Assembly (NCBI GenBank): GCA_905233415.1
Contig: CAJOEX010000003.1
Location: forward strand, 21,630 to 85,629
Source: Paludibacteraceae bacterium
GTDB lineage: Bacteria; Bacteroidota; Bacteroidia; Bacteroidales; Paludibacteraceae
DNA length: 64,000 bases
Reading direction: 5' to 3'
Shown: positions 10,867 to 35,419 of the stretch, one piece after another
Layout: each line of letters starts with the position of its first letter
Position numbering within the stretch: position 1 is the first letter of the stretch
Program-made: the position numbers and the translations under genes
The notes under the pieces: generated by a model
The model's database searches: none
What the model saw: only the letters and a program-made list of their open reading frames with translations
Told to the model about the DNA's origin: nothing

Positions 10867-11826
10867 TTATTTCTTGATTTTGTCAAATCCCTGCCCGAAT
10901 ACGCCGGAAACATTGGCATAGCTGACAAAAGCGTTCGGGTCGATAGCCTTAATCCACTTCAAAATAAGCGGACTCTCATGTTTGCGGGCAAGCACGGTAA
11001 CAACCATGATAGGCTGTTTGCTGTACCATCCTTTGCCGTCCAGCACTGTCACGCCTCGATGCACGTGCGTATTGATGGCGGTTGCGATGTCGGCGGCTTT
11101 TGTCGAGAAGATGAAGAACTGTACCGATTGGCGGATGCGGGACATAAACCAGTCCAATGCCGCGGTGTAGCACAAGGTCATGCTCATACCGTACAGGATA
11201 CGCTTGAGCTTGAATTCCGTAACGTCAGTCACTTGCGCAGCCAGCGAATCAGGAATAGGCAGGAAATAACTGGATAGCACGATAATCACATCGCAGAAGA
11301 CCATCACTTTGCCTAAAGAAATATCTCGGTAGTTATTGACAATCATGGCGATGATATCCGTTCCGCCGGATGAACCGTTGTTAAGCATTACAATGCCCAG
11401 ACAGATGCCGAAGAATGCACCGCCGATGATACATCCAAGCAAGGGCTCTTCAATAAATGGCACTTCGCGAATAGGTATCATACGATACCAAAAAGCCAAC
11501 GAGACAACGCCGAAAATGGTACGGATACAGAATCTCCAACCGATGGTGAATGCTGCAATGGCGAGCAACACCGAGTTGAAAATCAGTGTCGTCAGCCAAA
11601 TCGGGATAGCGCCATTGTATGTGGGGAACAAGTCATGGAAGAAACCTTGCGTGGCATAGTAAATAATCGAACATATACCTGTCATACCGCCACCGGCAAT
11701 GTTGTGAGGTATAAAAATCCAGTTTACGGTCAATGCGAACGGACATAGTGTCACAAAAATCAAAATATACTCCCGAATAATTTCGAGTTTGTGCTGGCGG
11801 GGAGTCGGTATAATGTGCGGATTCAT
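10867..11826 (-). CDS. YitT-family membrane protein (DUF2179 C-terminal domain)
   Basis: Multi-TM N-terminal part with NNGSSGGTDI, and C-terminal ...RGVTVLDGKGWYS...VVTVLARKHE...IKAIDPNAFVSYANVSGVFGQGF. Confidence 0.8.
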   Translation of the reverse strand: MNPHIIPTPRQHKLEIIREYILIFVTLCPFALTVNWIFIPHNIAGGGMTGICSIIYYATQGFFHDLFPTYNGAIPIWLTTLIFNSVLLAIAAFTIGWRFCIRTIFGVVSLAFWYRMIPIREVPFIEEPLLGCIIGGAFFGICLGIVMLNNGSSGGTDIIAMIVNNYRDISLGKVMVFCDVIIVLSSYFLPIPDSLAAQVTDVTEFKLKRILYGMSMTLCYTAALDWFMSRIRQSVQFFIFSTKAADIATAINTHVHRGVTVLDGKGWYSKQPIMVVTVLARKHESPLILKWIKAIDPNAFVSYANVSGVFGQGFDKIKK

Positions 11827-17522: not shown

Positions 17523-17532
17523 ATAACAACAA

Positions 17533-17560
17533 AAAAGTGACTCGGATGAGCCACTTTTTT
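17533..17560. terminator. Shared (bidirectional) terminator between lepA and the minus-strand cluster
   Basis: aaaagtgactc-ggat-gagccactttt has one mismatch, with an A-run on one side and a T-run on the other. Confidence 0.6.
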
Positions 17561-17577
17561 GTTTGCAGATAAGTAGA

Positions 17578-18153
17578 TTAGTTACCGGCTGCAAGTTTGT
17601 CCATCTCAGCATCGAAGGTCTTCTTGAACTGCTCATACTCGAAATCGGTGCGCAGTTTCTCGCTGTCGGAGATAGCCTTCTTGGTGTTGTCCAGCAGAGC
17701 TTCCATCAGTTCGTTGGAAGTGAGCTCAACAGCAACATAAGCGTGGTAAACGATTCTGCCGTCTTTGTCCTCTGAACGGGTTACTTTGTCGCAAACTGCA
17801 ACAGAACCACGAAGCTTCTGGTTTACAACCATGCGGCTGAGGTCTTTGGTACGTGCGCGGAAGTCAGCAGCCTCGTCCAGATCATAGGAAGACGAGAAGT
17901 TCTCCAGAACGCGTTGCATTGAGGTCTCAATGCTGGTAGCGAGCTCACGACGAGCAGCTGCCAGAGCTTTGTCGGTCGCATTTTGCATGTTCGGAGAAAT
18001 AGCGTTAGCATTTGCGCGGAGAGTGGTCTTGTCAGTTTTGAACTCTTTGCAAGGAACAACTACTTCAACTTCACCTTTTGTCGGGGCAACTTTCTTGCCG
18101 CCACAGCTTACCATTACGAGGGTAGCTGCCAATACACATAATACTTTCTTCAT
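17578..18153 (-). CDS. Exported lipoprotein, LPP20-like (tentative), function unknown
   Basis: Lipobox MKKVLCVLAATLVMVSC. ...ISPNMQNATDKALAAARRELATSIETSMQRVLENF resembles the LPP20 helix pattern as I remember it. Confidence 0.6.
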   Translation of the reverse strand: MKKVLCVLAATLVMVSCGGKKVAPTKGEVEVVVPCKEFKTDKTTLRANANAISPNMQNATDKALAAARRELATSIETSMQRVLENFSSSYDLDEAADFRARTKDLSRMVVNQKLRGSVAVCDKVTRSEDKDGRIVYHAYVAVELTSNELMEALLDNTKKAISDSEKLRTDFEYEQFKKTFDAEMDKLAAGN

Positions 18154-18195
18154 AATTGAATGAATTTAATTGTTAATAATTGGGTTAATTAACGT

Positions 18196-19125
18196 TTATT
18201 TTACAATAAAACGGTTTTTTATTTTGTTGTTTAAAACGTTCAGTGTTACGTCCAACCAGTTCTCTTCGCCTTCGTAGCAGGCGGTCTGGAAGTCGTATTT
18301 TACAATACATTCGCCGCCGCGGGACATGTACTGCATGTCACTGAGACAGTTAGAGGACAATCTCGGTTGAATGTTTGTTGTCAAACGGTTTTCACCGAAG
18401 TAGGGAGCATAAACCAACTGCTGCTTGTTAACGGAAATCAGGCGCAGTGTGATGGATTTGATGTTGTCTGAATAGGCTTTTTCAATGTTGGCGCATGAGT
18501 TGCGACGCGGGTCGCGTTCCATCAGTGTGGACTTGAAAATACGTACCTGTTGCAGTTGCTTCATCATCTCTTCAATGGAAGAGTAGCCCGAGAAATCATC
18601 TTTTGCAAAGTCCTCAAGCTGTTGGTCCAGCTTGGCTTCACGCTCCATAAACTCATCCGACAGGCGTGTCAAATCAAAACGCGAGAACGGATATTTGATA
18701 TGGTAGCGGAAGAAATAATGGTCTTTGTCCTTCTTTATTTTCTCCCAATAGATTTCATCCACTTTCGAGATTCCCACTTCTCCGAGGAAGGGGATCAGCG
18801 CACTTTCTGTCTCTACGGCTGATTCGTAGGTCTCAATAATATCATACTTGCCGTTAACGCCTACTTCGTTGGAGTTCATTTTTGCGGAAGCACGCACATT
18901 TTCTGCGATGGAAGACATAATGTGCTTTTTGACGTTGAGCATGGCCTTTTCTTTGGCATCCTCAACGTTGGCAGCCTCTGCCGAAACAATGATGAATTCC
19001 TTTTCGGCACCGTAAATCCACTTCGGCTGTCTGCCGGAGGAATCAACCACTTTTTCACCGCCGCCGGCTTGCAAATACGCGCAACCGGTCAGTAAAGCGA
19101 ATGCGATAAATAATACTTTTCTCAT
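18196..19125 (-). CDS. Exported lipoprotein with an LPP20-like N-terminal module, function unknown
   Basis: Lipobox FALLTGC. QPKWIYGAEKEFIIVSAEAANVEDAKEKAMLNVKKHIMSSIAENV is followed by an unassigned C-terminal half of about 200 aa. Confidence 0.6.
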   Translation of the reverse strand: MRKVLFIAFALLTGCAYLQAGGGEKVVDSSGRQPKWIYGAEKEFIIVSAEAANVEDAKEKAMLNVKKHIMSSIAENVRASAKMNSNEVGVNGKYDIIETYESAVETESALIPFLGEVGISKVDEIYWEKIKKDKDHYFFRYHIKYPFSRFDLTRLSDEFMEREAKLDQQLEDFAKDDFSGYSSIEEMMKQLQQVRIFKSTLMERDPRRNSCANIEKAYSDNIKSITLRLISVNKQQLVYAPYFGENRLTTNIQPRLSSNCLSDMQYMSRGGECIVKYDFQTACYEGEENWLDVTLNVLNNKIKNRFIVK

Positions 19126-19127
19126 AA

Positions 19128-19715
19128 TTATTGCCAGTTAAAGTTGTACTCTAATGGTTGTTCACTGGAAGAAGCAGGTTCTGACGGGGCTGTTCCTTCG
19201 TTTTGTTGTTCCTGTGCGGCTCTCTCCAGCTCAATCAGCATCTTCAACTCGTCAATAATGCGTTGTTTGCCTTTGTCAAAGAACGGTTTGAAAGCACGGT
19301 CATTGGCGGAAATAGCCTTGATGGCGCTTAAATACGCTTTTTCTTCCGTATCGCCGATACCTTTGCGGTTGATGGCTGTGGAAGCATACAATGTGCCATC
19401 CACGCCGTTGCCGATAAAGAAGTGCACTTCAACCTCCACAAGCCACTTTTGCGGTACGGTACCTGTTACCTGTTTGTCAATTACATTCACCGAAGTGGTG
19501 ACAATATACGGCTGGTTGTCAATAGCGCTCAATCCGTTCTTCAATGCCGCTTGACGCATACGGTTCAGCAGTAATGCTTCCGCTTCCGGTGTCAAATTGG
19601 TTTCTGCCGAAATATACGCGGTCAGAGGAATTTCAATCTTCAGTTCTTCGGCTTCTTGAGCCTGCATAATGGTTGCGCAAGTCAGCGCAAGCATGAATAT
19701 AAATACTTTTTTCAT
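19128..19715 (-). CDS. Secreted protein, function unknown
   Basis: Signal peptide MKKVFIFMLALTCATIMQAQ. Its stop lies 2 nt from the next start. I recognise no motif. Confidence 0.6.
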   Translation of the reverse strand: MKKVFIFMLALTCATIMQAQEAEELKIEIPLTAYISAETNLTPEAEALLLNRMRQAALKNGLSAIDNQPYIVTTSVNVIDKQVTGTVPQKWLVEVEVHFFIGNGVDGTLYASTAINRKGIGDTEEKAYLSAIKAISANDRAFKPFFDKGKQRIIDELKMLIELERAAQEQQNEGTAPSEPASSSEQPLEYNFNWQ

Positions 19716-19739
19716 AATCTTGAAATCTTCAAATCTACT

Positions 19740-21143
19740 TTACTTGCTTCCAATTACAATCAGCACTTCACCCAAACCTTTGGACGAGATATTGCAATCA
19801 ATGCTGTATTCGTTCTTCAGCATGTTTTTCAACTCACGTACCCAGCGAATCGGGTCATTGTCACGACCTTTCTTGTTCACTAACGGCATTCGTGCCTGTT
19901 CAATGGTCATACGAGTACCCGAAGAACTGATATCCGGAGAACCGAATTTTCCCTTTACTGTATTGTCTTCTAACCAGTCTTCAATAATTTCATGCAACTC
20001 ATCGCCATCGTATTCCGTCATCAGATTTCCGTCAAAGTCATCCCAAACGAGGAAGCGCAGTTTAATCGCACGACCTTTAGCTGCCATGTCCTTGAAGTAT
20101 TTGATCATCGTGTCGCAGAACGGGTTGAACTGACCTTGAATAGCCGATTCAATCATGGCTGCAATATTGAACGAACTGCTGTATTCGTTTTGGCTCAAGG
20201 TTGGCGGAATACCTGCAGCTTGGAAGTCCGTGTAAGCGTCTAATGCTTCCATTGAGAAACGTAAGGTCTTTTGGCTACCGCCCTTTACGTCAATAATATC
20301 CCAGTTGATTTCAATCCATATGTCTGCTTTGGCAACGCGGCGTAATACATCAATAGGTGTTTCCTGAACGCTTGCACCGCCTTCAATGCTCTGCATTACA
20401 GATTCTTCCGCCTGCTCCGTTTTCATGGTCTGGAGTGCACGGTTCAAGTCTTTTACCTCAAAGCCACGGCTTATCAAACGGGCTTTAATGGCTGCTATAG
20501 CTTGTTGCAAATCGTTGTCCAAGAGGGCTTTCTCATAGTCAGCGATATACTCTGTTCCACCGTTATTCTTGATTTGCATGAGGCATTTGTGAGCGTTGCA
20601 GTAGTTCTTGCTCGGAACAATCATCAGCGTCGGCATTTTGCCTTCAACAACATCAGATGCAGCGGTCAGAATGCCGTCTTTTTCAAGGCGTTCACGCAAT
20701 TGGTCAACCAATACAACAACGGTAATACCAATCTTGTACTCCTTGCCTACTTTCATAATCTGGTCCGGAACGCCGTTGCGGATATACGTTACGTAACGCT
20801 GGAAGTCACCGCCTTCTTTGAAAAAGTTCTTGAAATACTCGGCATTGGCCTCTTCAACGCTTGGGTCTGCAATCATCGGGGCACGACCTACAATGCCTTG
20901 TGCGGAAGGGAAGCCCTTGAACATAATGGCATGAACCGCATTCTTGCCGGCTTGAGACGTTGCAACGGTATTGCTTTTTGAGTACGTCCATATACGTACC
21001 ATTTCCGAACCGCGTGCCGCCTGTCCGACTGCCGGTTCCACTTCATAACGCCACTGGGCGGTTTGAATGTCCGCTTTGCGTTGCTGTGCATTTACGCTTA
21101 AGATGCATAACATCGCAGCAATTAATGTGAAAATTTTCTTCAT
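19740..21143 (-). CDS. Secreted protein, 467 aa, function unknown
   Basis: Signal peptide MKKIFTLIAAMLCILSVNAQ. It is a long clean ORF, and the plus-strand ORFs across it are low-complexity shadows. Confidence 0.65.
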   Translation of the reverse strand: MKKIFTLIAAMLCILSVNAQQRKADIQTAQWRYEVEPAVGQAARGSEMVRIWTYSKSNTVATSQAGKNAVHAIMFKGFPSAQGIVGRAPMIADPSVEEANAEYFKNFFKEGGDFQRYVTYIRNGVPDQIMKVGKEYKIGITVVVLVDQLRERLEKDGILTAASDVVEGKMPTLMIVPSKNYCNAHKCLMQIKNNGGTEYIADYEKALLDNDLQQAIAAIKARLISRGFEVKDLNRALQTMKTEQAEESVMQSIEGGASVQETPIDVLRRVAKADIWIEINWDIIDVKGGSQKTLRFSMEALDAYTDFQAAGIPPTLSQNEYSSSFNIAAMIESAIQGQFNPFCDTMIKYFKDMAAKGRAIKLRFLVWDDFDGNLMTEYDGDELHEIIEDWLEDNTVKGKFGSPDISSSGTRMTIEQARMPLVNKKGRDNDPIRWVRELKNMLKNEYSIDCNISSKGLGEVLIVIGSK

Positions 21144-21178
21144 ACTTTTTTATTTTTTGTTATTCTGTATTTCTTGGC

Positions 21179-22501
21179 TTACATTTCCCGAATCAGCATT
21201 CCGGGAACAATCGTTTTGGTGGCAGTACCTTGCATTTTGAACAGGGTTCCTTCTGTCATGGCATCCACGTCATTTTCCAACAGCGCATTAAAGCGGTTGT
21301 CCCAAATTTGGTTGTTAATCGGTTTTAGTGTGGCAACGCGGTTGTAAACCACTTTGCCTTTGTTGTTCAGCTTCATCTCCAACACTTCATACGTGCGGTT
21401 TTCTGACACGCCTTCTTTCAGCCCTACAAGCGCACGGAAGCCTTTCAACTTGCCCTTGGTGTCATATTCGACAGCGGAAATAGGAGTCTTGATACGGAAA
21501 TCTTCGTATTGGCTCTGCAATTTCGCCACATTGTTATCAATCGAACGGCGTGTGATTAGTTCCAGCAAGCCGGACCGACTGTACTTGCCGATTTTCTGCG
21601 TCTTTTCATATTTTGCATCTTCCTCACCTAAATACTTGAGCTTGAATGAACTCTTGTCGGCAAGAAACGCTTTAATGCGTGAAGGATCAGGTTTTTCGGT
21701 GTAATAATTTGAATAGAACACATCAGCTATGCTATCATTCCATTCCAATTGGAAGAGGTAACTGTGTGTCCATACTTTGAATCCGGTAAAACTGTCAGCA
21801 ATATCGCCGGCCCATTGTGCCGTACGTTCACCGTAGTTTTTTCCGGTAAGCGCATCAAAGATGCCGCCTAATACGTTCAGCGTCTTTTTGGCTGCATCTG
21901 CACGATCCTCTGCGGTAATATAGGTCATATCGCTTACCAGCACAAACGAGTGACTGATTAATTCTTCCGAAATCGCTTGCAGCACATCCACGCCCGCTGC
22001 TGTATAACGTGCCATTACAGCTTCTTCGACGGTTGCGTTATAATCACTCCGGTCCTCTAATAATTTCGTTGAGAAAACGGCATCGTTGACATTTTCGCCT
22101 TTCAGGTCAAACCACTTGGCAACCATGCGTTTGCCGATTTGGGCATCATTGAGCAATTGCAGCAAAGCATCCGCATTTTTTTGCTTTTCGCCTGCTGTCA
22201 GCACCATACTTCCTCCGTACTGCATACGGTGAAAGCCGGAGTCTTTGCCTTTGACGTTCTTAACCTTTGAATTGTCAATCACACGGTAGGAAACATCGTG
22301 ATTGTCAAACTTCTCCAATGCAGGAAGAGACTTGAATATCTCATATACGTCGTAACCAAACTCGTCTTCCGCATGATAAATCATCATTTGCGCCAATGCA
22401 TTACGGTAGTAAGGCGTTACGTCATGCTTCAAGGCTTCTTGCGCCATGAGCGGTGTTGTCATCAGCAACACATATATAATATATAAGGTGTAACGTCTCA
22501 T
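21179..22501 (-). CDS. Secreted protein, 440 aa, paralogue of 26981-28399
   Basis: Signal peptide ...LLMTTPLMAQ. It shares blocks with the 472-aa protein: YLFQLEWNDSIADVFYSNYY / HLYQLNWDDEIANTFYSKYY, FRIKTPISAVEYDTKGK / FRVATPITGLTYNAKGK, QIWDNRF / QIWDNRY, PGMLIRE / PGYLIRE. Confidence 0.7.
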   Translation of the reverse strand: MRRYTLYIIYVLLMTTPLMAQEALKHDVTPYYRNALAQMMIYHAEDEFGYDVYEIFKSLPALEKFDNHDVSYRVIDNSKVKNVKGKDSGFHRMQYGGSMVLTAGEKQKNADALLQLLNDAQIGKRMVAKWFDLKGENVNDAVFSTKLLEDRSDYNATVEEAVMARYTAAGVDVLQAISEELISHSFVLVSDMTYITAEDRADAAKKTLNVLGGIFDALTGKNYGERTAQWAGDIADSFTGFKVWTHSYLFQLEWNDSIADVFYSNYYTEKPDPSRIKAFLADKSSFKLKYLGEEDAKYEKTQKIGKYSRSGLLELITRRSIDNNVAKLQSQYEDFRIKTPISAVEYDTKGKLKGFRALVGLKEGVSENRTYEVLEMKLNNKGKVVYNRVATLKPINNQIWDNRFNALLENDVDAMTEGTLFKMQGTATKTIVPGMLIREM

Positions 22502-23694
22502 TTTCCGAACATGCTTAAATAGAAACCATTGACATCCGCCACAACATACAGGAAGTCGCCGCGTTTGCCGTCTTTTCCGTTTTTGCCACGCTTACCATCA
22601 GGTGCTTTTCCTGAGCAACCGCTACCTTGTCCGTGGATACCGCCTTTACCGCCTTCTCCGCCTTGTCCGCCTTTGCCGGCTTCAATCGTGCCGGAAATAG
22701 CCTCCAAACCATATTGGTCAAGCAATATCTGGCTGACGCAGAACAAGTAGGTCGCGCCATCTGTGCCGTCACCGCCATTTCCGCCGTCCTGACCTGCTTC
22801 CGCGCAAGTGCCTTTTTTATAGTGCTCTTTTCCGTCGCTATCCGTGTACTTGACCTCGTCTTTACCGTTTTTGCCGTTTTTACCGCGCCCGCCATTGCTG
22901 CCGTCGCGTCCTGCTCCAGAGAAGTTGAAGGGCAGATGCACCACTTCCAACTGGTTGGTTTTGAGGTTGCACATCAATGCCAAATCCGGAATGGAGTCAC
23001 TGCCAAGCAGTTCAAAGCTATATGCCAAGTCCTCGCCGCTGCAATACATGCTGTTGCGATAACCAAGGGAAATATCAAAGATGTACTTTGAGTTGGACGG
23101 TTTGTGAATACAGGTCACTTTATGCTTGGACGGATAGTTACCGGCTGCAATATTAAGGGTAGGGACGATAAACTCAATCTTGTTGCCGACCATCTTAATC
23201 GCCTCGCTGTTTGTCGAGAACTCGAAATCCGACATTTTGCAGGTCTTGTTCTTATGATTGACAATAGTTATTTCGTTACCGTTTCTAAGGATTGCATACG
23301 ACATACGGTCTTTCTTGACATTGAATGATTCGTCATTGTATTCAACGTTTTCGCGACCGTGAGAGGTATTGGTGATTTTGATAATAGGTGTAGCAATTGT
23401 ATATGCATTGCCCTGTTTGAGAATGGCGCACTCGCTTTGTCCGGGACCGATATACTTCTCAACGTTTGCCAGCACTTTGGCATCTACATTGGGCAAGTAA
23501 CTGCCTTGACGTATCAGTTTTTGTTTCTTCTCTGCCTCTAATTTGGCTTTGGCTTCTGCCATTGCAGGAGGTAGGGGAGCGACTTTGCACACGGCAGCAG
23601 GAACGCTTCCCATCTGGTCGTCCAATGCTTGTGCACGGACATTCAAGCCTGCGCACAAACATAGAACGGCTATGAGCGAGATACGTATTCTCAT
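22498..23694 (-). CDS. Secreted protein with a collagen-like Gly-rich C-terminal third
   Basis: Signal peptide MRIRISLIAVLCLCAGLNVRAQA. Residues 259-380 contain GRDGSNGGRGKNGKNGKD, GQDGGNGGDGTDG, GKGGQGGEGGKGGIHGQGSG and GKRGKNGKDGKRGD. It overlaps the downstream gene by 4 nt. Confidence 0.7.
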   Translation of the reverse strand: MRIRISLIAVLCLCAGLNVRAQALDDQMGSVPAAVCKVAPLPPAMAEAKAKLEAEKKQKLIRQGSYLPNVDAKVLANVEKYIGPGQSECAILKQGNAYTIATPIIKITNTSHGRENVEYNDESFNVKKDRMSYAILRNGNEITIVNHKNKTCKMSDFEFSTNSEAIKMVGNKIEFIVPTLNIAAGNYPSKHKVTCIHKPSNSKYIFDISLGYRNSMYCSGEDLAYSFELLGSDSIPDLALMCNLKTNQLEVVHLPFNFSGAGRDGSNGGRGKNGKNGKDEVKYTDSDGKEHYKKGTCAEAGQDGGNGGDGTDGATYLFCVSQILLDQYGLEAISGTIEAGKGGQGGEGGKGGIHGQGSGCSGKAPDGKRGKNGKDGKRGDFLYVVADVNGFYLSMFGK

Positions 23695-23708
23695 CTTTTT
23701 AACAGCAA

Positions 23709-24308
23709 TTAGTCTTCAAACATTTTGCGTACATCGGGAGCCTTGTTGGCGCCTTCTTCTGCCTCGAAGTACGGTTTCTTTTGGAAGCCGAAGATAGAAG
23801 CAACGATGTTAGCCGGGAACTTGCGAATCAGGATGTTGAATTCCTTTGCAGCATCGTTGAAGGCGTTACGAGCCACCGTAATGCGGTTCTCGGTACCCTC
23901 CAATTGTGACTGGAGCTGCAGGAAGTTCTCGTTAGACTTGATTTCCGGATAGCTTTCAGCAACGGCCATGAGTCGTCCCAATGCCTGGCTGAGTTCGCCT
24001 TGTGCCTGTTGGAAAGCGGCGAGTTGTTCAGGAGTTGCATTGGACGGGTCGATTGTCATTTGCGTGGCGCGTGCACGTGCCTCCATGGTTTTTTCGTACA
24101 CTTCGGTCTCGTGCTTTGCGAACTGCTTAACTACTCCGACAAGGTTCGGAATCAGGTCAGCACGACGCTGATATTGGTTCTCTACTTGACCCCAAGCGTT
24201 TTCAACGTTTTCCTCTGCGGTCACCATGGCATTGTACTTGCCAAACATCCAAAACAGGAGTGCTGCTATCGCAGCAATCACAATAATCCAAGTTGCTCTT
24301 TTACTCAT
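23709..24308 (-). CDS. LemA family protein
   Basis: N-terminal TM WIIVIAAIAALLFWMF, then NAMVTAEENVENAWGQVENQYQRRADLIPNLV...YPEIKSNENFLQLQSQLEGTENRITVARNAFND, which is typical of LemA. Confidence 0.9.
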   Translation of the reverse strand: MSKRATWIIVIAAIAALLFWMFGKYNAMVTAEENVENAWGQVENQYQRRADLIPNLVGVVKQFAKHETEVYEKTMEARARATQMTIDPSNATPEQLAAFQQAQGELSQALGRLMAVAESYPEIKSNENFLQLQSQLEGTENRITVARNAFNDAAKEFNILIRKFPANIVASIFGFQKKPYFEAEEGANKAPDVRKMFED

Positions 24309-24348
24309 AATGATTATTAATTAAAAAATGTCAATTATCAACTGTCAA

Positions 24349-25248
24349 TTACCATCTGCCACCGGCACCGCCGCCGAATGACCGTCCGCCGCCGAAACTG
24401 CCGCCGCTGCTACGGCTGCTACCGCCGTACGAACGTCCGCCGCTGCTTGACGAAGAGGACGGAGGAGTCAGTTTGGCAATGGTATAGGGGACATCCCATT
24501 TATGTCCGCACCGGTTGCAGGTATAGTGGTGAATACCGTTTCCGGAAGCCGAATAGGTGGCACGGTTAATTATCTCGTCCTTGTGCTTGTTGTCTTTCAT
24601 CTTGCAGTTCGGACATTTGGGTTTAACCAAGTACGTGAGGTACGTGATTAACAACACAATCAAACTTATAATAGACAAGCCTTTGAAGGGCGATTCGGAA
24701 ACAGGTTCTGCTTTATAGCCCAGCAGCAGTTCCGCCTGCGCTTCGTCGGTTGTCAGTGTTTCGTAGATTGCTATAGCGCCTCGTATCAGACCGCGTTCAT
24801 AGTTGTTCTCCCGGAACTCAGGCGCCATCTCATCCCAAATGATATCGGAGCACTTCGCGTCGGGAAGCAAGCCTTCAACACCGCCGCCGGTGCGAATCTG
24901 AATATCGTGGTACTCCATCGACATGAATACCAGCACACCGCGGTTTTTCTCTTTGTCACCGATACCCCACGTATTGAACAGGTCGAGCGAGAAGTCAAAC
25001 GCATCTTCGTAGCCTATCCCGTTGAGGATGACATATACCACCTCCACACCGGTTTGCTCGTATAGCATCTGCGATATCTGCGTCAAGTTGTTAACGCAAT
25101 CGCTGCTGATGATACCATCGGGGTTGGCAACGTACGCCTCAGCATCCGTATGACGCGGATTGGGTACTGTTTCCACAGTATATTGTGCCTGCACACTTGA
25201 AATGCACAAGCACAAAAACATGGCGATATAAAGTTTCTTTTTCATCAT
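24349..25248 (-). CDS. TPM-domain (YgcG-like) protein with an embedded CxxC...CxxC zinc ribbon and a Gly/Ser-rich tail
   Basis: Signal peptide, then the TPM core ...GVEVVYVILNGIGYEDAFDFSLDLFNTWGIGDKEKNRGVLVFMSMEYHDIQIRTGGGVEGLLPD, a TM segment LSIISLIVLLITYLTYL, then CPNCKMK...CNRCGHKW, and the tail SSSSSSGGRSYGGSSRSSGGSFGGGRSFGGGAGGRW. Confidence 0.8.
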   Translation of the reverse strand: MMKKKLYIAMFLCLCISSVQAQYTVETVPNPRHTDAEAYVANPDGIISSDCVNNLTQISQMLYEQTGVEVVYVILNGIGYEDAFDFSLDLFNTWGIGDKEKNRGVLVFMSMEYHDIQIRTGGGVEGLLPDAKCSDIIWDEMAPEFRENNYERGLIRGAIAIYETLTTDEAQAELLLGYKAEPVSESPFKGLSIISLIVLLITYLTYLVKPKCPNCKMKDNKHKDEIINRATYSASGNGIHHYTCNRCGHKWDVPYTIAKLTPPSSSSSSGGRSYGGSSRSSGGSFGGGRSFGGGAGGRW

Positions 25249-25262
25249 AATTATCTACTTAT

Positions 25263-25350
25263 CGTCTCGGTAAGGTCTCGGTAACGTCTCGGTGAGCATC
25301 CGATGAGCACCCGATGAGCACCCGATGACCATCCGATGAGCACCCGATGA
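25263..25350. repeat. Tandem array, eight units of exactly 11 bp in two subfamilies
   Basis: cgtctcggtaa, ggtctcggtaa, cgtctcggtga, gcatccgatga, gcacccgatga, gcacccgatga, ccatccgatga, gcacccgatga. It fills most of the 116-nt gap between the beta-helix gene stop and the TPM gene start. Confidence 0.95.
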
Positions 25351-25364
25351 GATGCAAGGATTAA

Positions 25365-26837
25365 TTAGGGTTTTTGTGCGCCGTAGCCCGGCATAGCACC
25401 GAACAATTGCAGCGCTTTGTCAAAGTTATAGCGGTTGCCGTACATCGAAACGCGGCGGATTTCCGAACCTTGCATGTTCTGACCGGTTGCCTGACGGAAC
25501 TGGTTTGAAGCCGAATTCGGGTTGAAGTTCGACGATTGGGCGATAACCTTCAGGTTGGCAAATGCTTCCAAATAGTCCTTGTCAAATGCTTTAATCACAT
25601 CGCTGCCGGCGGGCAGTTCCTTGTTGTTTTCGGCTCTTGGCAGCGTTTTCTCATCCACCATTTCCTCAATGTCGGTACATTTTACGTTGGTCCACTTGCC
25701 ACCACCGGAAGAAGGTAATTGCAGGTCGGCTGCGTTGAGGAAGTAGTAGTTGTCATAGAGGTTGGTTACGCGTTTTGCCTCAATCGGAGCGTCGGGACCC
25801 GAGAGTTTGCGGGTACGAGCGACAGCGGCATAGTTGTTACCAACGAAGAGGTTGTGGTGTACGTCAGCGCTCACTTTGTTCATATACTCAAAGCCGTAAC
25901 CCATGTCTTCCATGAATTTGTCGCGGCACCAGCTGAAAGCAACGGTGTTGTGGTGGAAGTTGATATGCGAAGCCTCACCATCCTTGTCCCAGCCGTCAAT
26001 ACGAACACCGCTGTAGCGGTTGGAGATAATCACGCAGTTGTAGATTTCAATCTCGCCACAGCGTGTATTGAACTGGATTCCGAATTGCGAACCGTTGGCA
26101 ATCAGGCAGTTGCGGATAATCACATTTCCTGCGATAGCGCCGTCGGAGTGGAAAATCTGGTGCTCGATTTGTGGCGGAATAGCATCTTCCATACGTCCGG
26201 TCTCAAATGCTGCAGACGGGCAACCGAAGCGTTCGTCACCCGGGTTGGCGGGTTTGTAGTAGTTCTCAAGACCCATGTCGAGCATGATACCGTCAATGAT
26301 AAGTGTGCCCTGCGGCGTTTTCGATGTAACGGCATCCAAGTCACGAGTGGTTTGAATCAGACCTTTGCTGCCGTTGGTTCCGCGTTGTTCCTCTCCCGGT
26401 TGGATGCGGGTGATGTATTTCAGCGGGTCACGGTCGGTAAACGTCTCGTTCCAACCGCCTTCAAGCGTAACAAAGTTTGCGATTTCGATGTAACCTTGGT
26501 TGGTATAGCCAAGGAAGTTACCTTCGCCGATACGGATTACGGCGCCGTTTTCCTTGTTCTCTTTAATAATGTTCAGCACAGCCTGAATATCTTTCTTGGC
26601 GGTGGCAGGGCTCAATCCGTCTGCGCCACGGGCAGCGCCGTTTTTGCTTACATAATACACTTTTCCGTTGTTTTGCGGAGTGGCAGCCTGCTTGACATCT
26701 TGTTTTGCCTGCGAAGACTGCTGGGTTGTTGGCGACTGGGACGAAGCTTGTCCGCTAACCAAGTTCTTCAGGAACTGGGCATTGGCAGGCATACAAACAA
26801 CTGCTGCCAACATCAAAATGGAGAATACTTTCTTCAT
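25365..26837 (-). CDS. Secreted right-handed beta-helix (pectin-lyase-fold-like) protein
   Basis: Signal peptide MKKVFSILMLAAVVCMPANAQ, then a Q/S-rich linker, then KVYYVSKNGAARGADGLSPATAKKDIQAVLNII...GAVIRIGEGNF and repetitive NxxI/V turns (GNVIIRNCLIANGSQFGIQF..IEIYNCVIISNRYSGVRI). The 374-aa plus-strand ORF 25719-26843 is its shadow. Confidence 0.65.
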   Translation of the reverse strand: MKKVFSILMLAAVVCMPANAQFLKNLVSGQASSQSPTTQQSSQAKQDVKQAATPQNNGKVYYVSKNGAARGADGLSPATAKKDIQAVLNIIKENKENGAVIRIGEGNFLGYTNQGYIEIANFVTLEGGWNETFTDRDPLKYITRIQPGEEQRGTNGSKGLIQTTRDLDAVTSKTPQGTLIIDGIMLDMGLENYYKPANPGDERFGCPSAAFETGRMEDAIPPQIEHQIFHSDGAIAGNVIIRNCLIANGSQFGIQFNTRCGEIEIYNCVIISNRYSGVRIDGWDKDGEASHINFHHNTVAFSWCRDKFMEDMGYGFEYMNKVSADVHHNLFVGNNYAAVARTRKLSGPDAPIEAKRVTNLYDNYYFLNAADLQLPSSGGGKWTNVKCTDIEEMVDEKTLPRAENNKELPAGSDVIKAFDKDYLEAFANLKVIAQSSNFNPNSASNQFRQATGQNMQGSEIRRVSMYGNRYNFDKALQLFGAMPGYGAQKP

Positions 26838-26926
26838 GATTGAACGAATTAGAGGTTAATACTATGTTGATTGTGTAAATTAAGTGCTTTTTCCCGCCCT
26901 ACGGGCGTGTTTTTCTATTTTGGCGG

Positions 26927-26934
26927 CAAAGGTA
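26927..26934 (-). promoter_or_regulatory. Internal -7 box TAccTTTG upstream of the beta-helix gene
   Basis: The plus strand reads caaaggta, about 90 nt upstream of the ATG at 26837, in the 143-nt gap after the 472-aa gene. Confidence 0.55.
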
Positions 26935-26980
26935 CAACAAAAATCTCATATACGCAAATTTTTCTGTATTTTTTTTGTTT

Positions 26981-28399
26981 TTACTTTTCCCGTTTGTCTG
27001 TTTCGCGTATCAAATAGCCGGGCGTGAAGACTTTGGCGGTGCCGCTTTTCTTCTCAAACGTAGAGCCTTGCAAGCTTGGAACATCGATACCTTCCGCTTT
27101 GTCCTGCTCTGCAGCCTCGTAGCGGTTGTCCCAAATCTGATCCGGCGCAACAACACCCACTTTGACGTATTTGGTCCGTTGCGTTTGAGGGTCTATTTGT
27201 GTTTCCCAGACTGCGAATTTCTTCTTGGCGATTGATTCTTTTTCGCCGATGTCAGCCATAACGCCTGCCGGTTTGCCTTTGGCATTGTATGTAAGTCCGG
27301 TAATGGGCGTAGCCACACGGAATTCGGGGTATAGCGTTTGCAGTTTGCTCAACGCCGCATCCTGTGTACGGGCGCAGGTGATGCGTATCTGGTCAGATTT
27401 CTTCTGGTTGGCATAAGCGGTTGCCTTGGAGCTTTTCCACGTGCCGGACGAAGCGTTGTCTGTAACGGTCGGGTAGGAGCCGACATATCGCATTTTGAAG
27501 GTCGTGTCATTCAGAAATTTCTCATAGCGTGCAGGATTGGGCTCGTTTTCCCGATAATACTTGGAGTAAAAGGTGTTGGCGATTTCGTCATCCCAGTTCA
27601 GTTGGTACAAATGGGTATATTCCAGCACTTTGAAACCCTCAATGTCCAGCATCTCGTTCGTTGTCTTTGCCACATCCAAGACCAGAATCAGCATATCGCG
27701 CACGGAGTCCATGATGCCCTGAATAATTCCGTCAACGCCCGGAATAAGGCCCAATGTCAGCATCAGAATATCACGAATGCCGTTGCAGGTAGCAGCAATA
27801 ATGTCCTGCGACGCTTCCATAACATATTGTGCCAGTTCTTTTTGCTCATCGTGACTGATGTACGCCATTTCGTTAAAAACGACGAAACTCTTTTTAATCA
27901 GTTCGTCACCGGCATCTGCCAGCAGCGAAGATGCCCCGACTGTTGTATAGGCAGCTGCCTGTTTCTGCATTTCGGACAAGTCATAAAAACCGCGGTCAGC
28001 CAGTTTTTTGGTGTTGCAGTTGCTGTTCTTGTCCATATTGAACCAGTCCGCAATGATGCGGTGTGCCATTTTCTGCTCCGCGATGTATTCGTCGAACTTG
28101 ACATGTGCGTTCCGGTCTTTGACGGAGCGGAAATTGCATTTGTCGTCAATGCCTAAAAATTCAGTTTTTGAGAGTAGCCGTATTTTGTCATACTTGTCCG
28201 GAAACGGAATATCGACCGCCGTTTGGGCGATTTCGTTGGCAAAAGAATCCTGCATGTGAATGACAGGGAATATCCGTAACGAACTGCGGTGATAAGGCGG
28301 TATTTCGCTTTTCTCCACGCGCTGTGCAAACACTCCGCTATATGCTGCGAATATGCCAATCAGTATAAGAAAATATCTTTTGACCATAATATTGTCCAT
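26981..28399 (-). CDS. Secreted protein, 472 aa, paralogue of 21179-22501
   Basis: Signal peptide ...FLILIGIFAAYSGVFAQ. The conserved blocks are listed under 21179-22501. An extra hydrophobic insert IRDILMLTLGLIPGVDGIIQGIMDSVRDMLILVLDV is absent from the paralogue. Confidence 0.7.
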   Translation of the reverse strand: MDNIMVKRYFLILIGIFAAYSGVFAQRVEKSEIPPYHRSSLRIFPVIHMQDSFANEIAQTAVDIPFPDKYDKIRLLSKTEFLGIDDKCNFRSVKDRNAHVKFDEYIAEQKMAHRIIADWFNMDKNSNCNTKKLADRGFYDLSEMQKQAAAYTTVGASSLLADAGDELIKKSFVVFNEMAYISHDEQKELAQYVMEASQDIIAATCNGIRDILMLTLGLIPGVDGIIQGIMDSVRDMLILVLDVAKTTNEMLDIEGFKVLEYTHLYQLNWDDEIANTFYSKYYRENEPNPARYEKFLNDTTFKMRYVGSYPTVTDNASSGTWKSSKATAYANQKKSDQIRITCARTQDAALSKLQTLYPEFRVATPITGLTYNAKGKPAGVMADIGEKESIAKKKFAVWETQIDPQTQRTKYVKVGVVAPDQIWDNRYEAAEQDKAEGIDVPSLQGSTFEKKSGTAKVFTPGYLIRETDKREK

Positions 28400-29259
28400 T
28401 AAAATGTTATTCGTGCCGTCAGCCCGGGTGTATATGGGTCAAACATTGTCGGAGCAAGGTTTAGCGAATAACCTTTGAACTTGTTGTCAATCACCATTCG
28501 CCGTGCACCCGGAGCCACACCTGCATCAATAATGTTATATATCCACAACCCTGCCAACGCACCGATACATATCCAACCGCCGGTTTGCCAGTTTTGGGCG
28601 GCGGTGTGATAAGTCAGGATTTTCTTGCTGTCGTGCGTTGAACTTTCCAGACTCAGGTAACTGGCTTTATTGGCTTCGCACAGCACGATTCCGCCTGCAC
28701 ACAATACGGATGCACCCATAATCAGTCCGCCTTTGAGGTACGAACCTTTGTACATCTGTCCCGCACCCGGAATAATCGACAGTGCTACCGGTCCGAAACC
28801 GTACTTGTCTGTCAGACGGGTGTATTCAATCGCTCTTGTACCCGGACGGACTACTTGATACAGTACATAGCAGCGGTACTGGTTTTTGTAGCCCATCCGC
28901 ACCAGTTCCCAGTAGGAATCCACTTCCTTGCAGTCCATCGCTACTGCTACCGGCGAACCTTCCATCAGCACTTTGACCTCATTGCTGCCGTTACCTTTTA
29001 CCTGCCATTCGGCGAAGCGGTTAATCTCCCATGACTGCGGCATGTAGTTTGTCAGTTCCTTGAGCGATGCCTCGTGTGCGTCACTCAGTTTGTCCACATA
29101 CACTTGCACCACGCGGTAAGCCACATTCGGGTTTTCCGACTTGGGCGTGTGTTTCACCCAGCGGGGAATCATCTTGTCGGATTTCTGCAGCGTATTTCCG
29201 GCTTCCATGCCCGCAATACTGCACCCCAACAAAAATGCCAGAATGATGCATTTTTTCAT
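28399..29259 (-). CDS. Lipoprotein with an LPP20-like N-terminal module and a membrane-embedded C-terminal half
   Basis: Lipobox AFLLGCS. IPRWVKHTPKSENPNVAYRVVQVYVDKLSDAHEASLKEL is followed by Gly-rich TM segments PVALSIIPGAGQMYKGSYLKGGLIMGASVLCAGGIVLC and GGWICIGALAGLWIYNIIDA. It ends ...TARITF. Confidence 0.65.
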   Translation of the reverse strand: MKKCIILAFLLGCSIAGMEAGNTLQKSDKMIPRWVKHTPKSENPNVAYRVVQVYVDKLSDAHEASLKELTNYMPQSWEINRFAEWQVKGNGSNEVKVLMEGSPVAVAMDCKEVDSYWELVRMGYKNQYRCYVLYQVVRPGTRAIEYTRLTDKYGFGPVALSIIPGAGQMYKGSYLKGGLIMGASVLCAGGIVLCEANKASYLSLESSTHDSKKILTYHTAAQNWQTGGWICIGALAGLWIYNIIDAGVAPGARRMVIDNKFKGYSLNLAPTMFDPYTPGLTARITF

Positions 29260-29298: not shown

Positions 29299-29757
29299 TT
29301 AATTTTCCACTCTCGTCTTGACGATGAGTTTGCGGAACGGTTTGCCTTTTTCCACAATGCCGGGCTGATGGGCGTCTGTCGGGAAGAATACCACAAAGTG
29401 GCCTACCGGCACATTGAGCATCACGGTTGCCTTTTCCTTGTAGAGTTCCACGTCTTTGCCCTCATCGTATTCGGCGGTCACGTTCTGGCAGTCCTCAAGG
29501 GCTTTCCATCCCATTTGCTCGTCGGCGGTCAGAGGAATCTGGATGTCGATGTAGTCACGGTGCGCCTCAAAGGGTAGGGATTTCTCATCCTTGCCTTTGA
29601 TGTCCTGGATGTTGATAAACAGGTCGTCGCCGTCGAGTCTCACTTTGCCTGCGGCAAATTCCTCAAGGTCATTGTTGTTGAAGAAATGCATGAATTGTTC
29701 CAATCGCGGTACGGCATCATAGTACCAGTCCGCGTTTTCAAGTTTGTCGATAATCAT
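29299..29757 (-). CDS. YhcH/YjgK/YiaL-family (DUF386) protein
   Basis: 152 aa. ...GKVRLDGDDLFINIQDIKGKDEKSLPFEAHRDYIDIQIPLTADEQMGW...GHFVVFFPTDAHQPG matches the family pattern as I remember it. Confidence 0.75.
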   Translation of the reverse strand: MIIDKLENADWYYDAVPRLEQFMHFFNNNDLEEFAAGKVRLDGDDLFINIQDIKGKDEKSLPFEAHRDYIDIQIPLTADEQMGWKALEDCQNVTAEYDEGKDVELYKEKATVMLNVPVGHFVVFFPTDAHQPGIVEKGKPFRKLIVKTRVEN

Positions 29758-35255: not shown

Positions 35256-35263
35256 CAAAGGTA
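35256..35263 (-). promoter_or_regulatory. -7 box TAccTTTG for the efflux operon
   Basis: The plus strand reads caaaggta, 23 nt upstream of the adaptor ATG. Confidence 0.55.
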
Positions 35264-35419
35264 CTGCTTTTTTTTTATTCAAGCAAATAAAAGTGCTATT
35301 TTATTGTTATGTTGTTGTGCTTTTATGTTATTTTTGAAAAAAAACTGCATTTGGGTGGATTAGCAAAAAAGAGGTTTGGAATATGTAAGAGAAACGCAGC
35401 CCTTCGATTTAGAGTGCAG

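Follow-up and report, generated by a model that had tools for sequence, protein, structure and literature searches.

A co-conserved module of exported proteins within a composite eleven-gene block of a Paludibacteraceae bacterium

The 64,000-nucleotide (nt) stretch of Paludibacteraceae bacterium DNA analysed here (GenBank assembly GCA_905233415.1, contig CAJOEX010000003.1, positions 21,630 to 85,629; called "the window" below) carries between its positions 17578 and 29259 eleven consecutive open reading frames (ORFs), all on the minus strand, which we call g01 to g11 in order of increasing coordinate. A preliminary description of the window proposed that these eleven genes form one dedicated envelope or envelope-stress system. 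Our comparison with related loci does not bear this out; the block brings together on one strand at least three pieces that are unrelated to one another. The first piece, g06 to g01, is the local "type A" form of a four-to-six-gene module that is found throughout the Bacteroidota. The second consists of g09, g08 (TPM) and g07 (LemA), which are chance neighbours of the module, and the third of g10 and g11.

Read in the direction of transcription, the module begins with g06 (22498 to 23694), whose product of 398 amino acids (aa) has a signal peptide and, at about residues 258–380 (22555 to 22923), a region of Gly-x-x triplets. It is followed by g05 (21179 to 22501; 440 aa, type-I signal peptide) and by g04, in which residues 1–168, signal peptide included, make up an N-terminal domain that we call c3 (20640 to 21143) and residues 169–467 a DUF6175 domain (Pfam PF19672; 19740 to 20639). 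Next come g03 (19128 to 19715; 195 aa), g02 (18196 to 19125; 309 aa, with lipobox LTGC in this genome) and g01 (17578 to 18153), which encodes a 191-aa lipoprotein with lipobox VSC. We refer to the corresponding families as G1 to G6; G5, c3, DUF6175 and G3 are the core of the module, and G1, G2 and G6 are accessories, the last of them in rumen type A loci only. On the 3' side of g01 a strong hairpin terminator on the same strand (17528 to 17563; a 16-bp stem, then a T run) separates it from the convergent gene lepA and is common to both genes.

The positions of all eleven ORFs agree with those first given, and recomputing the distances between them, going upstream from g01, reproduced the earlier values (42, 2, 24 and 35 nt, a 4-nt overlap, then 14, 40, 116 and 143 nt, and finally a 1-nt overlap). 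Direct reading and a hydropathy scan both find an N-terminal hydrophobic leader on each of the eleven products, and from these leaders we predict that all eleven are exported or membrane-anchored. The lipoboxes VSC, LTGC and LLGC (the last in g11) and the anchor of LemA (g07), an uncleaved N-terminal transmembrane helix in the hydropathy scan, were correctly recognized in the preliminary description, but its eight type-I signal peptides were not: eight, three and one add up to twelve for eleven genes, one too many, and we count seven (g03–g06 and g08–g10, with A/V-x-A-Q-like sites as read from the sequence). The assignments of LemA, TPM and a β-helix protein (g09) are supported by Pfam matches above the cut-off. 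The NCBIfam models gave a LemA/MamQ-like and a Psb32-like (TPM) match, both below cut-off, and no name for the other nine proteins tested, g11 being outside that scan. An origin of the block in a defence system or a prophage was considered and rejected, since no PADLOC model matched a block protein below E 1e-3 and the PHROG models gave one weak match of unknown function, for g01.

About 170 related loci were compared (numbered below with the prefix L). Each scan gives its best 80 loci, so the frequencies that follow are those among sampled loci. The first set was anchored on G5 and comprises 80 genome loci and two contigs of the window's own species (82 fetched), which with the window make 83 sources; they were analysed by tblastn with all eleven proteins followed by clustering of all ORFs. 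The nearest genome loci are in Paludibacteraceae metagenome-assembled genomes (MAGs) from reindeer, deer, horse and goat; between g05 and its counterpart in one of these relatives (L003) the identity is 84%, and identical proteins occur in the same gene order on metagenome contigs. DUF6175 accompanies G5 in 74 of the 83 sources and G3 in 67; the usual core order is G5-c3-DUF6175-G3, with the four families always together. Two architectures prevail. Type A (about 25 loci, the window's among them) has the order [G2] G6 G5 G4 G3 [G2 G1] with a G4 protein of about 470 aa, and type B (about 55 loci) has c3 c3 DUF6175 G3 G5, with DUF6175 and G3 proteins of 316 and 312 aa, respectively.

The same quartet extends well beyond the family. 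When remote relatives of g04 and g10 were followed to their contigs, a scan with family hidden Markov models (HMMs) found the four core families adjacent to one another in Aquirufa (Cytophagales), a Prevotella-like MAG, a member of the Salinivirgaceae and a TARA marine contig, and it is also complete around a 1054-aa long form in which PEGA is joined to G5 (L093, 8001–11165). The reciprocal comparison started from 80 DUF6175-anchored metagenome loci (rumen, gut, marine, soil and other), 30 of which are full in the sense of having at least 2.5 kb of upstream and 4.5 kb of downstream sequence. G5, c3 and G3 are present in all 30 full loci, and the core lies on one strand in 29; the accessories are less regular (G2 in 11, G1 in 5 and G6 in 5, the G6-positive ones all being of rumen type). 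No further gene family recurs with the module in the sampled loci, and no ATPase, inner-membrane protein, enzyme, transporter or regulator is consistently linked to it there; c3, DUF6175 and G3 each occur only once in the window. Thus the co-conservation suggested for the block holds for g06 to g01 but fails for the five other genes (LemA, TPM, g09, g10 and g11). The companion suggestion that the locus encodes an undescribed envelope assembly can likewise be kept for g06 to g01, an all-exported and co-conserved group that is probably such an assembly, but not for the whole block. Full-text literature searches on DUF6175 and related terms returned no relevant publication, nor did we find one that ties FlgT/FlgP/FlgO or CsgG/DUF799/LPP20 to this Bacteroidota cluster, so that we found no published description of the module.

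Might some of these families be hidden paralogues of one another? Pairwise hhalign comparison of G1, G2, G3, G4, G5, G6, c3, c4, g09 and g11 gave no support for this; the only genuine relationship is that of c3 to the N-terminus of g04, the other matches being between signal peptides. Nor did PDB sequence and profile searches with G5, G4, G6, G2, G1, g09, G3 and c3 give a significant match.

The G5 family is large (1107 clusters at 50% identity, E ≤ 1e-3, in an exhaustive profile search). Neither g05 nor its paralogue g10 has a Pfam match at E ≤ 0.1, and no PDB entry matches G5 by sequence. AlphaFold2 models were made for g05 and g04 among the module proteins. The g05 model (49-sequence alignment; predicted local distance difference test score, pLDDT, 79.7; predicted template-modelling score 0.78) shows an α/β region followed by an all-β C-terminal domain. 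Its best Foldseek match, and the sole one below 1e-3, is FlgT, a Vibrio flagellar H-ring protein (3w1e; E 1.9e-5, probability 1.0). The global template-modelling (TM) scores of the pair are 0.20/0.24, with a root mean square deviation (rmsd) of 13.6 Å over 447 columns, which suggests that in the model the resemblance lies at the level of domains that are differently arranged. Weaker matches of the same model are to TraT, CsgG, PelC and LptE, and its C-terminal β domain matches the N-terminal β-barrel of F1/V1-ATPases (about 102 columns, rmsd 4–5 Å). Terashima et al. reportedly described FlgT in 2013 as a TolB-N-like domain plus a β-barrel that resembles the N-terminal domain of F1-ATPase, an arrangement that would agree with the F1/V1 matches of the G5 C-terminal domain. 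Many G5-family proteins are long (600–1100 aa; P0410, P0413, P0422, P0429, P0446, P0449 and P0459), with the G5 domain at the C-terminus and N-terminal extensions that carry PEGA, DUF2846, FlgT_C, DUF4377 plus META, or UVR motifs; the FlgT_C match is in one distant long relative (P0459; 27.3 bits against a cut-off of 27).

The gene g04, which the preliminary description treated as an orphan, is nothing of the kind. Its residues 169–465 match DUF6175 over profile positions 1–293 of 293 (269.5 bits against a cut-off of 23; E 4e-80), and its residues 1–168 are homologous to c3 (hhalign of G4 against c3, probability 100, E 2.4e-44), so g04 is a c3::DUF6175 fusion. In most other genomes c3 is encoded by one or two separate genes, whose products are about 165 aa long and exported, some of them with lipoboxes; split and fused forms both occur among the loci, and the Aquirufa fusion is 46% identical to c3a by BLAST. 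The c3 domain has no Pfam family and no significant PDB match. The signal peptide of g04 is of type I and ends ...SVNAQ|Q. In the model of g04 (pLDDT 84.8) the best Foldseek match of DUF6175 is the CsgG pre-pore (4uv2; E 1e-4, probability 0.99, target-normalised TM score about 0.3), and further matches are GNA1162 (4hrv; target TM 0.53–0.55), XCC0632 (2iqi) and PelC (5t0z/5t11; target TM about 0.5). For both models the query-normalised global TM scores are low (about 0.2), so these likenesses are again domain-level. The fourth core family, G3, was confirmed by hmmscan in the Aquirufa, Prevotella-like, Salinivirgaceae and TARA loci. Most of its members are 310–370 aa long and have an extra helical C-terminal half, g03 being a short form; G3 has no Pfam family, and its best PDB sequence match, LptE (E 0.37), is not significant.

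Of the accessories, G1 and G2 are frequent lipoprotein companions of the core and G6 is a clade-specific addition. In the family alignment of G1, Cys17 is nearly invariant; 15 Paludibacteraceae loci have a G1 gene next to the module. Among the G5-anchored loci 23 contain G2, placed on the downstream side of G3 or on the upstream side of G6. For G2 no Pfam family reaches its threshold and sequence searches of the PDB gave no relative, an α-actinin match (E 0.002) that falls in a helical segment being rejected as spurious. The earlier proposal of an LPP20-like module (PF02169) in g01, g02 and g11 found no match in any of these three window proteins, but weak, sub-threshold matches do occur in 5 of 10 G1 family members (best E 0.0071) and in 1 of 18 G2 members (E 0.018); profile searches against PDB sequences with G1 and G2 found no Lpp20 or FlgP structure. 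There is also a weak, non-significant match of g01 to LpoB (E 0.026). G6 is found in 26 of the 83 G5-anchored sources, always directly upstream of G5. The collagen-like character ascribed to g06 is half right: the Gly-x-x periodicity is real, with four blocks of 5–7 triplets (for example GGxGGIHGxGSGC) in which the glycines are invariant (among them G262, 265, 268, 271, 274 and 277; G301, 304 and 310; G340–357; G362–379) and cysteines and His are conserved (alignment A5), but the blocks are short and poor in proline, and there is no match to Pfam Collagen (PF01391). No Pfam family and no PDB relative was found for g06. Its triplets might form a bundle of the polyglycine-II type instead of a collagen helix.

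The structural matches point to a small number of known envelope proteins with which the module can be compared. CsgG, PelC and TraT are ring-forming outer-membrane lipoproteins, and the titles of the matched PDB entries describe nonameric, dodecameric and decameric assemblies. FlgT, FlgP and FlgO build an outer-membrane-associated periplasmic ring, the H-ring (PMC7990780). Among the proteins modelled here only G5 has a significant whole-chain structural match, namely the domain-level one to FlgT; like FlgT, G5 is predicted to be non-lipidated and periplasmic and is encoded beside small lipoproteins, of which G1 has the weak LPP20-like signals noted above (FlgP belongs to the LPP20 family). 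On the other hand the window's G5 protein lacks the Pfam domains FlgT_N, FlgT_M and FlgT_C, its global TM scores to FlgT are only 0.20–0.24, c3, DUF6175 and G3 have no H-ring counterparts, and there are no flagellar genes in the block or in any related locus inspected. We know of no flagellated member of the Bacteroidota. CsgG (4uv2, 4uv3), the best structural match of DUF6175, is likewise an envelope protein without an energy source of its own. It is, however, a lipoprotein that forms a nonameric β-barrel pore and is encoded with csgE, csgF and curlin genes, whereas DUF6175 has a type-I signal peptide, no match to Pfam CsgG (PF03783), no curli genes nearby and a target TM score of about 0.3. 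PelC (5t0z, 5t10, 5t11) and GNA1162/DUF799 (4hrv) have the highest target TM scores with the DUF6175 model (0.5–0.55), and PelC, a dodecameric periplasmic ring under the outer membrane according to the PDB titles, offers the closest analogy for the mechanism proposed below. Both of these are small single-domain lipoproteins, unlike DUF6175, which has no lipobox; moreover PelC acts with the porin PelB in a polysaccharide operon, while no polysaccharide-synthesis or porin genes are linked to the module, and the DUF4810/CsgG-like operon neighbours of DUF799 are missing at the module as well. By sequence and context the module thus lies outside the FlgT, CsgG, PelC and collagen families, and the likeness of the modelled folds suggests an assembly that is probably of a similar kind.

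From the gene content, the co-conservation and the fold resemblances that we observe, we infer that the module proteins oligomerise at the outer membrane, and the reading we favour, with somewhat better than even confidence, is that within this composite block the module encodes an energy-independent, outer-membrane-associated periplasmic ring or scaffold. Once exported by the Sec route, DUF6175, with its CsgG/PelC/GNA1162-like fold, and G5, which would contribute its FlgT-like architecture of an α/β domain and a C-terminal β-barrel, may assemble into ring- or cage-like oligomers against the periplasmic side of the outer membrane, tethered there by lipidated partners (G1, G2 and, in other genomes, the lipobox-bearing copies of c3), with G3 as a putative adaptor. 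Such an assembly could be a structural scaffold, or it could be a passive conduit or gate for material that crosses the outer membrane; in the rumen clade G6 might serve as its fibre or its cargo. Energy independence is expected because the genes have no consistent companion that encodes an ATPase, an inner-membrane component, an enzyme or a regulator.

Several points weigh against a ring or scaffold. The matches to known structures are domain-level, with query-normalised global TM scores of 0.17–0.24, and could reflect a common α/β sandwich and not a shared function. They concern G5 and DUF6175 only, with no structural assignment for G1, G2, G3, c3 or G6, and the LPP20 similarity is below threshold. 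CsgG and PelC are lipoproteins, whereas G4 and G5 are not, and the sampled loci contain no conserved outer-membrane β-barrel partner. Finally, most genomes with the module lack G6, which therefore is no universal cargo.

The alternative that survives best, which we nevertheless consider improbable, is an outer-membrane secretion channel like those of the curli or Pel systems, in which the pore or funnel would consist of DUF6175 and/or G5, and the substrate, polymerising at the surface, would be G6 or a fibre whose gene lies elsewhere. This alternative agrees with the fact that, among solved structures, the folds nearest to that of DUF6175 are those of CsgG and PelC, and with the placement of G6 directly upstream of G5, with a 4-nt overlap; the four blocks of invariant Gly-x-x triplets suggest a fibrous or repetitive structure, and a hydrophobic insert in g10, between two β strands, could insert into a membrane. 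G6 is missing from type B and from all non-rumen loci, however, DUF6175 is without the lipid anchor that CsgG and PelC have, and there is neither a partner like CsgE, CsgF, CsgA, CsgB or PelB nor a Pfam match to CsgG or Collagen. Less probable still is that the core consists of regulators or adaptors of envelope biogenesis, like LpoB, LptE or the N-terminal domain of TolB, that activate peptidoglycan synthases or act as chaperones of an outer-membrane protein and do not build a structure of their own. The same fold superfamily includes LptE, which is weakly matched by G5 and G3 (E 0.37), g01 has its weak match to LpoB, and the module has no cargo or energy component. All the LptE and LpoB matches are non-significant, though, four co-conserved families of which c3 is often duplicated exceed the needs of the known single-protein adaptors, and no locus inspected shows linkage to a penicillin-binding protein, Lpt or Bam gene.

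A passive ring or scaffold, as favoured here, has a more ambitious form that we put forward only as a speculation and think rather unlikely: that in non-flagellated Bacteroidota the quartet, with or without G1 and G2, builds beneath the outer membrane a ring-shaped machine of a kind not seen before, that this machine shares an evolutionary origin both with FlgT and FlgP of the flagellar H-ring and basal disk and with the CsgG and PelC secretion rings, and that in the rumen clade it exports or anchors the Gly-triplet fibre G6. If true, a major phylum would have an envelope organelle or secretion route of a new class, and the flagellar accessory rings would have a relative outside flagella. The Bacteroidota, which predominate in the gut and the rumen and are also common in water and soil, have an envelope machinery that is known mainly from type IX secretion and gliding motility, SusCD-type uptake, Bam and Lpt. 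The roughly 1100 G5 clusters, the strict synteny from Bacteroidales to Cytophagales, the ring-associated folds and the lack of an enzyme or energy component make the module a concrete, testable candidate for an undescribed envelope structure. The target is narrowed to g05, g04 and g03 with g01, g02 and g06, leaving LemA-TPM, g09 and g11 outside, and since at least one named isolate (Aquirufa sp. OSTEICH-129V) has the module in its genome, laboratory study may be feasible.

The remaining genes of the block have different histories. LemA and TPM are a widespread pair of membrane-anchored proteins, and g07 (23709 to 24308; Pfam LemA, PF04011, 193.4 bits, E 2.4e-57) and g08 (24349 to 25248; Pfam TPM_phosphatase, PF04536, 106.6 bits, E 1.1e-30) are clear members of it that adjoin the module and are no part of it. 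Only 8 of the 82 G5-anchored loci have the pair within 10 kb of the module, two of them (L001 and L002) from the window's own species; it lies upstream in L001–L004 and downstream of G1 in L006, L008 and L009, and it is also found in L055. Among 92 further loci (L083–L174) LemA occurs in 2 and TPM in 3. In L008 and L009 the stretch between G1 and LemA-TPM contains a terminator and a consensus promoter. The pair is thus rarely linked and has, in these cases, its own transcription signals, so that the "envelope stress" connection suggested for the block through LemA-TPM fails and is best regarded as incidental. The g08 protein itself has a signal peptide, a TPM domain and a transmembrane helix at residues 190–208, beyond which lie the CxxC pairs CPNC...CNRC (a weak zinc-ribbon match) and a tail rich in Gly, Ser and Arg; the CxxC pairs and tail past the helix imply that the TPM domain is periplasmic and carries a C-terminal module on the cytoplasmic side.

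Upstream of g08 is g09 (25365 to 26837), which encodes an exported right-handed β-helix protein (Beta_helix, PF13229; 33 bits against a cut-off of 25.9, residues 237–339) with no finer family and no PDB sequence relative. It is a lineage-specific neighbour: homologues were found only in the conspecific contig L001 and in L003 and L004, which are the nearest relatives, and none in L083–L174.

The third piece begins with g10 (26981 to 28399; 472 aa), which is an extra, diverged G5 paralogue. The recognition of g05 and g10 as a paralogous pair was correct (28% identity, E 3e-53). No orthologue of g10 occupies a comparable position elsewhere; its nearest relatives (40–42% identity) are the G5 components of complete modules in other genomes, such as that of L084 (G1-like, G2, G5-family, c3::DUF6175 and G3), and a metagenome scan with g10 alone gave no matches. 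Its hydrophobic insert (27713 to 27778; residues 208–229, ILMLTLGLIPGVDGIIQGI; hydropathy 1.73) corresponds to a segment that the g05 model shows, at low confidence, as a helical hairpin between two β strands, and one may speculate that it is an element for contact with, or insertion into, a membrane. The last gene, g11 (28399 to 29259), has a lipoprotein-type leader with lipobox LLGC and a C-terminal membrane domain that marginally matches Pfam DUF5683 (28 bits against a cut-off of 26.7), a family on which we found no relevant literature; a hydropathy scan shows two further transmembrane helices, at residues 178–196 and 230–248. There are no tblastn matches to g11 in any of the roughly 170 related loci.

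A TAnnTTTG box reported in the 143-nt spacer between g10 and g09 is real and belongs to a full promoter of the Bacteroidota type, TTTG-N20-TACCTTTG (26927 to 26958, minus strand), 90 nt upstream of g09. The window contains 19 copies of the motif TTTG-N17-23-TAnnTTTG, where shuffling predicts 1.96; most of them lie 20–100 nt upstream of ORF starts, and they furnish a usable map of transcription starts for the window. Scans for sigma-70 promoters (16 against 15.6) and for terminators (13 against 15.4) are at chance, and the one convincing candidate terminator is that after g01. Many of the window's promoter copies share the extended form TTTGC.TATAT...AAAAAAA.(G)CAGTACCTTTG. Within the eleven-gene block the motif scan finds a full consensus only at 26927–26958, and the next one upstream is at 35256–35287. 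In between, yhcH precedes g11 at a 39-nt gap, a TolC-like gene precedes yhcH at 5 nt, and beyond these are a resistance-nodulation-division (RND) pump gene and a gene for a 339-aa protein, which by its position only we take to be the membrane-fusion component. The product of yhcH (29299 to 29757; YhcH/YjgK/YiaL, DUF386) is cytoplasmic and has no signal peptide, and it breaks an otherwise all-envelope run. The upstream edge drawn for the block in the preliminary description is therefore arbitrary, as the tight same-strand spacing runs on into yhcH, TolC, the RND pump and the membrane-fusion gene. We predict two transcription units, either of which may contain weaker internal promoters: one with the 339-aa gene, the RND pump, TolC, yhcH, g11 and g10, and one with g09, TPM, LemA and g06 through g01. 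Thus g10 and g11 abut the efflux-yhcH genes and have no consensus promoter of their own, and g09, TPM and LemA, which sit between the sole consensus promoter and the module, are probably co-transcribed with it in this genome only.

These observations bear directly on whether all eleven genes might, after all, be one dedicated envelope assembly or envelope-stress system, which we now regard as very unlikely and as refuted for the most part by synteny. The single strand, the tight spacing and the export signal on every product speak for it, and the occurrence of LemA-TPM on either side of the module in the eight loci listed above would allow a loose association; yet in most loci the pair is not within 10 kb, in L008 and L009 it is set apart by its own terminator and promoter, g09 is confined to the nearest relatives, g11 never accompanies the module, and the tight run extends into the efflux operon and the cytoplasmic yhcH, so that spacing alone defines no system. 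That the block is a chance run of unrelated secreted proteins with no functional system at all, as the lack of an assignable function for most products might suggest, is scarcely credible, and for the core it is refuted by synteny, the four families being co-conserved across Bacteroidota orders (30 of 30 in the reciprocal test), fused as c3::DUF6175 in some loci and kept together despite changes in gene order.

The 116-nt spacer between g09 and g08 (25249–25364) does contain the 11-bp array reported for it: Tandem Repeats Finder gives a period of 11 with 5.4 and 2.8 copies at 25263–25351. The window has 8 copies and the same-species contig L001 has 7 (around 530–630); different 11-bp units occur in L002 (1–60) and L006 (around 10950–11000), and there is no array in L003 or L004. 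The period is about one turn of DNA. Phase variation, DNA bending and spacing are possible roles.

Some genes recur near the module in parts of the Paludibacteraceae. Upstream of Paludibacteraceae type B modules (L028–L035, L053 and others; for example L035, 4536–6260) there is a nearly invariant pair, a 233-aa protein that is NifU-like and a member of the GGGtGRT family (E 1.8e-188), followed by small OMP_b-brl-like proteins that end in ...RYKF. This pair, tyrS and the small outer-membrane protein genes were rejected as module parts, as they recur in a Paludibacteraceae subset only and in none of the distant loci. In a rumen subclade (L010–L013, L068 and L084) a same-strand set upstream of the module (for example L084, 2581–5936) encodes a zinc-ribbon protein, a Band_7_1 plus GYF_2 protein and two or three small GYF_2 proteins, and may reflect either a functional link or mere local synteny. 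Lastly, three loci labelled "Dialister sp. CAG:486" (L041), "Leyella stercorea" (L063) and "Azospirillum sp. CAG:239" (L080) carry a module of the Paludibacteraceae type, and their labels probably reflect binning or labelling errors in the assemblies.

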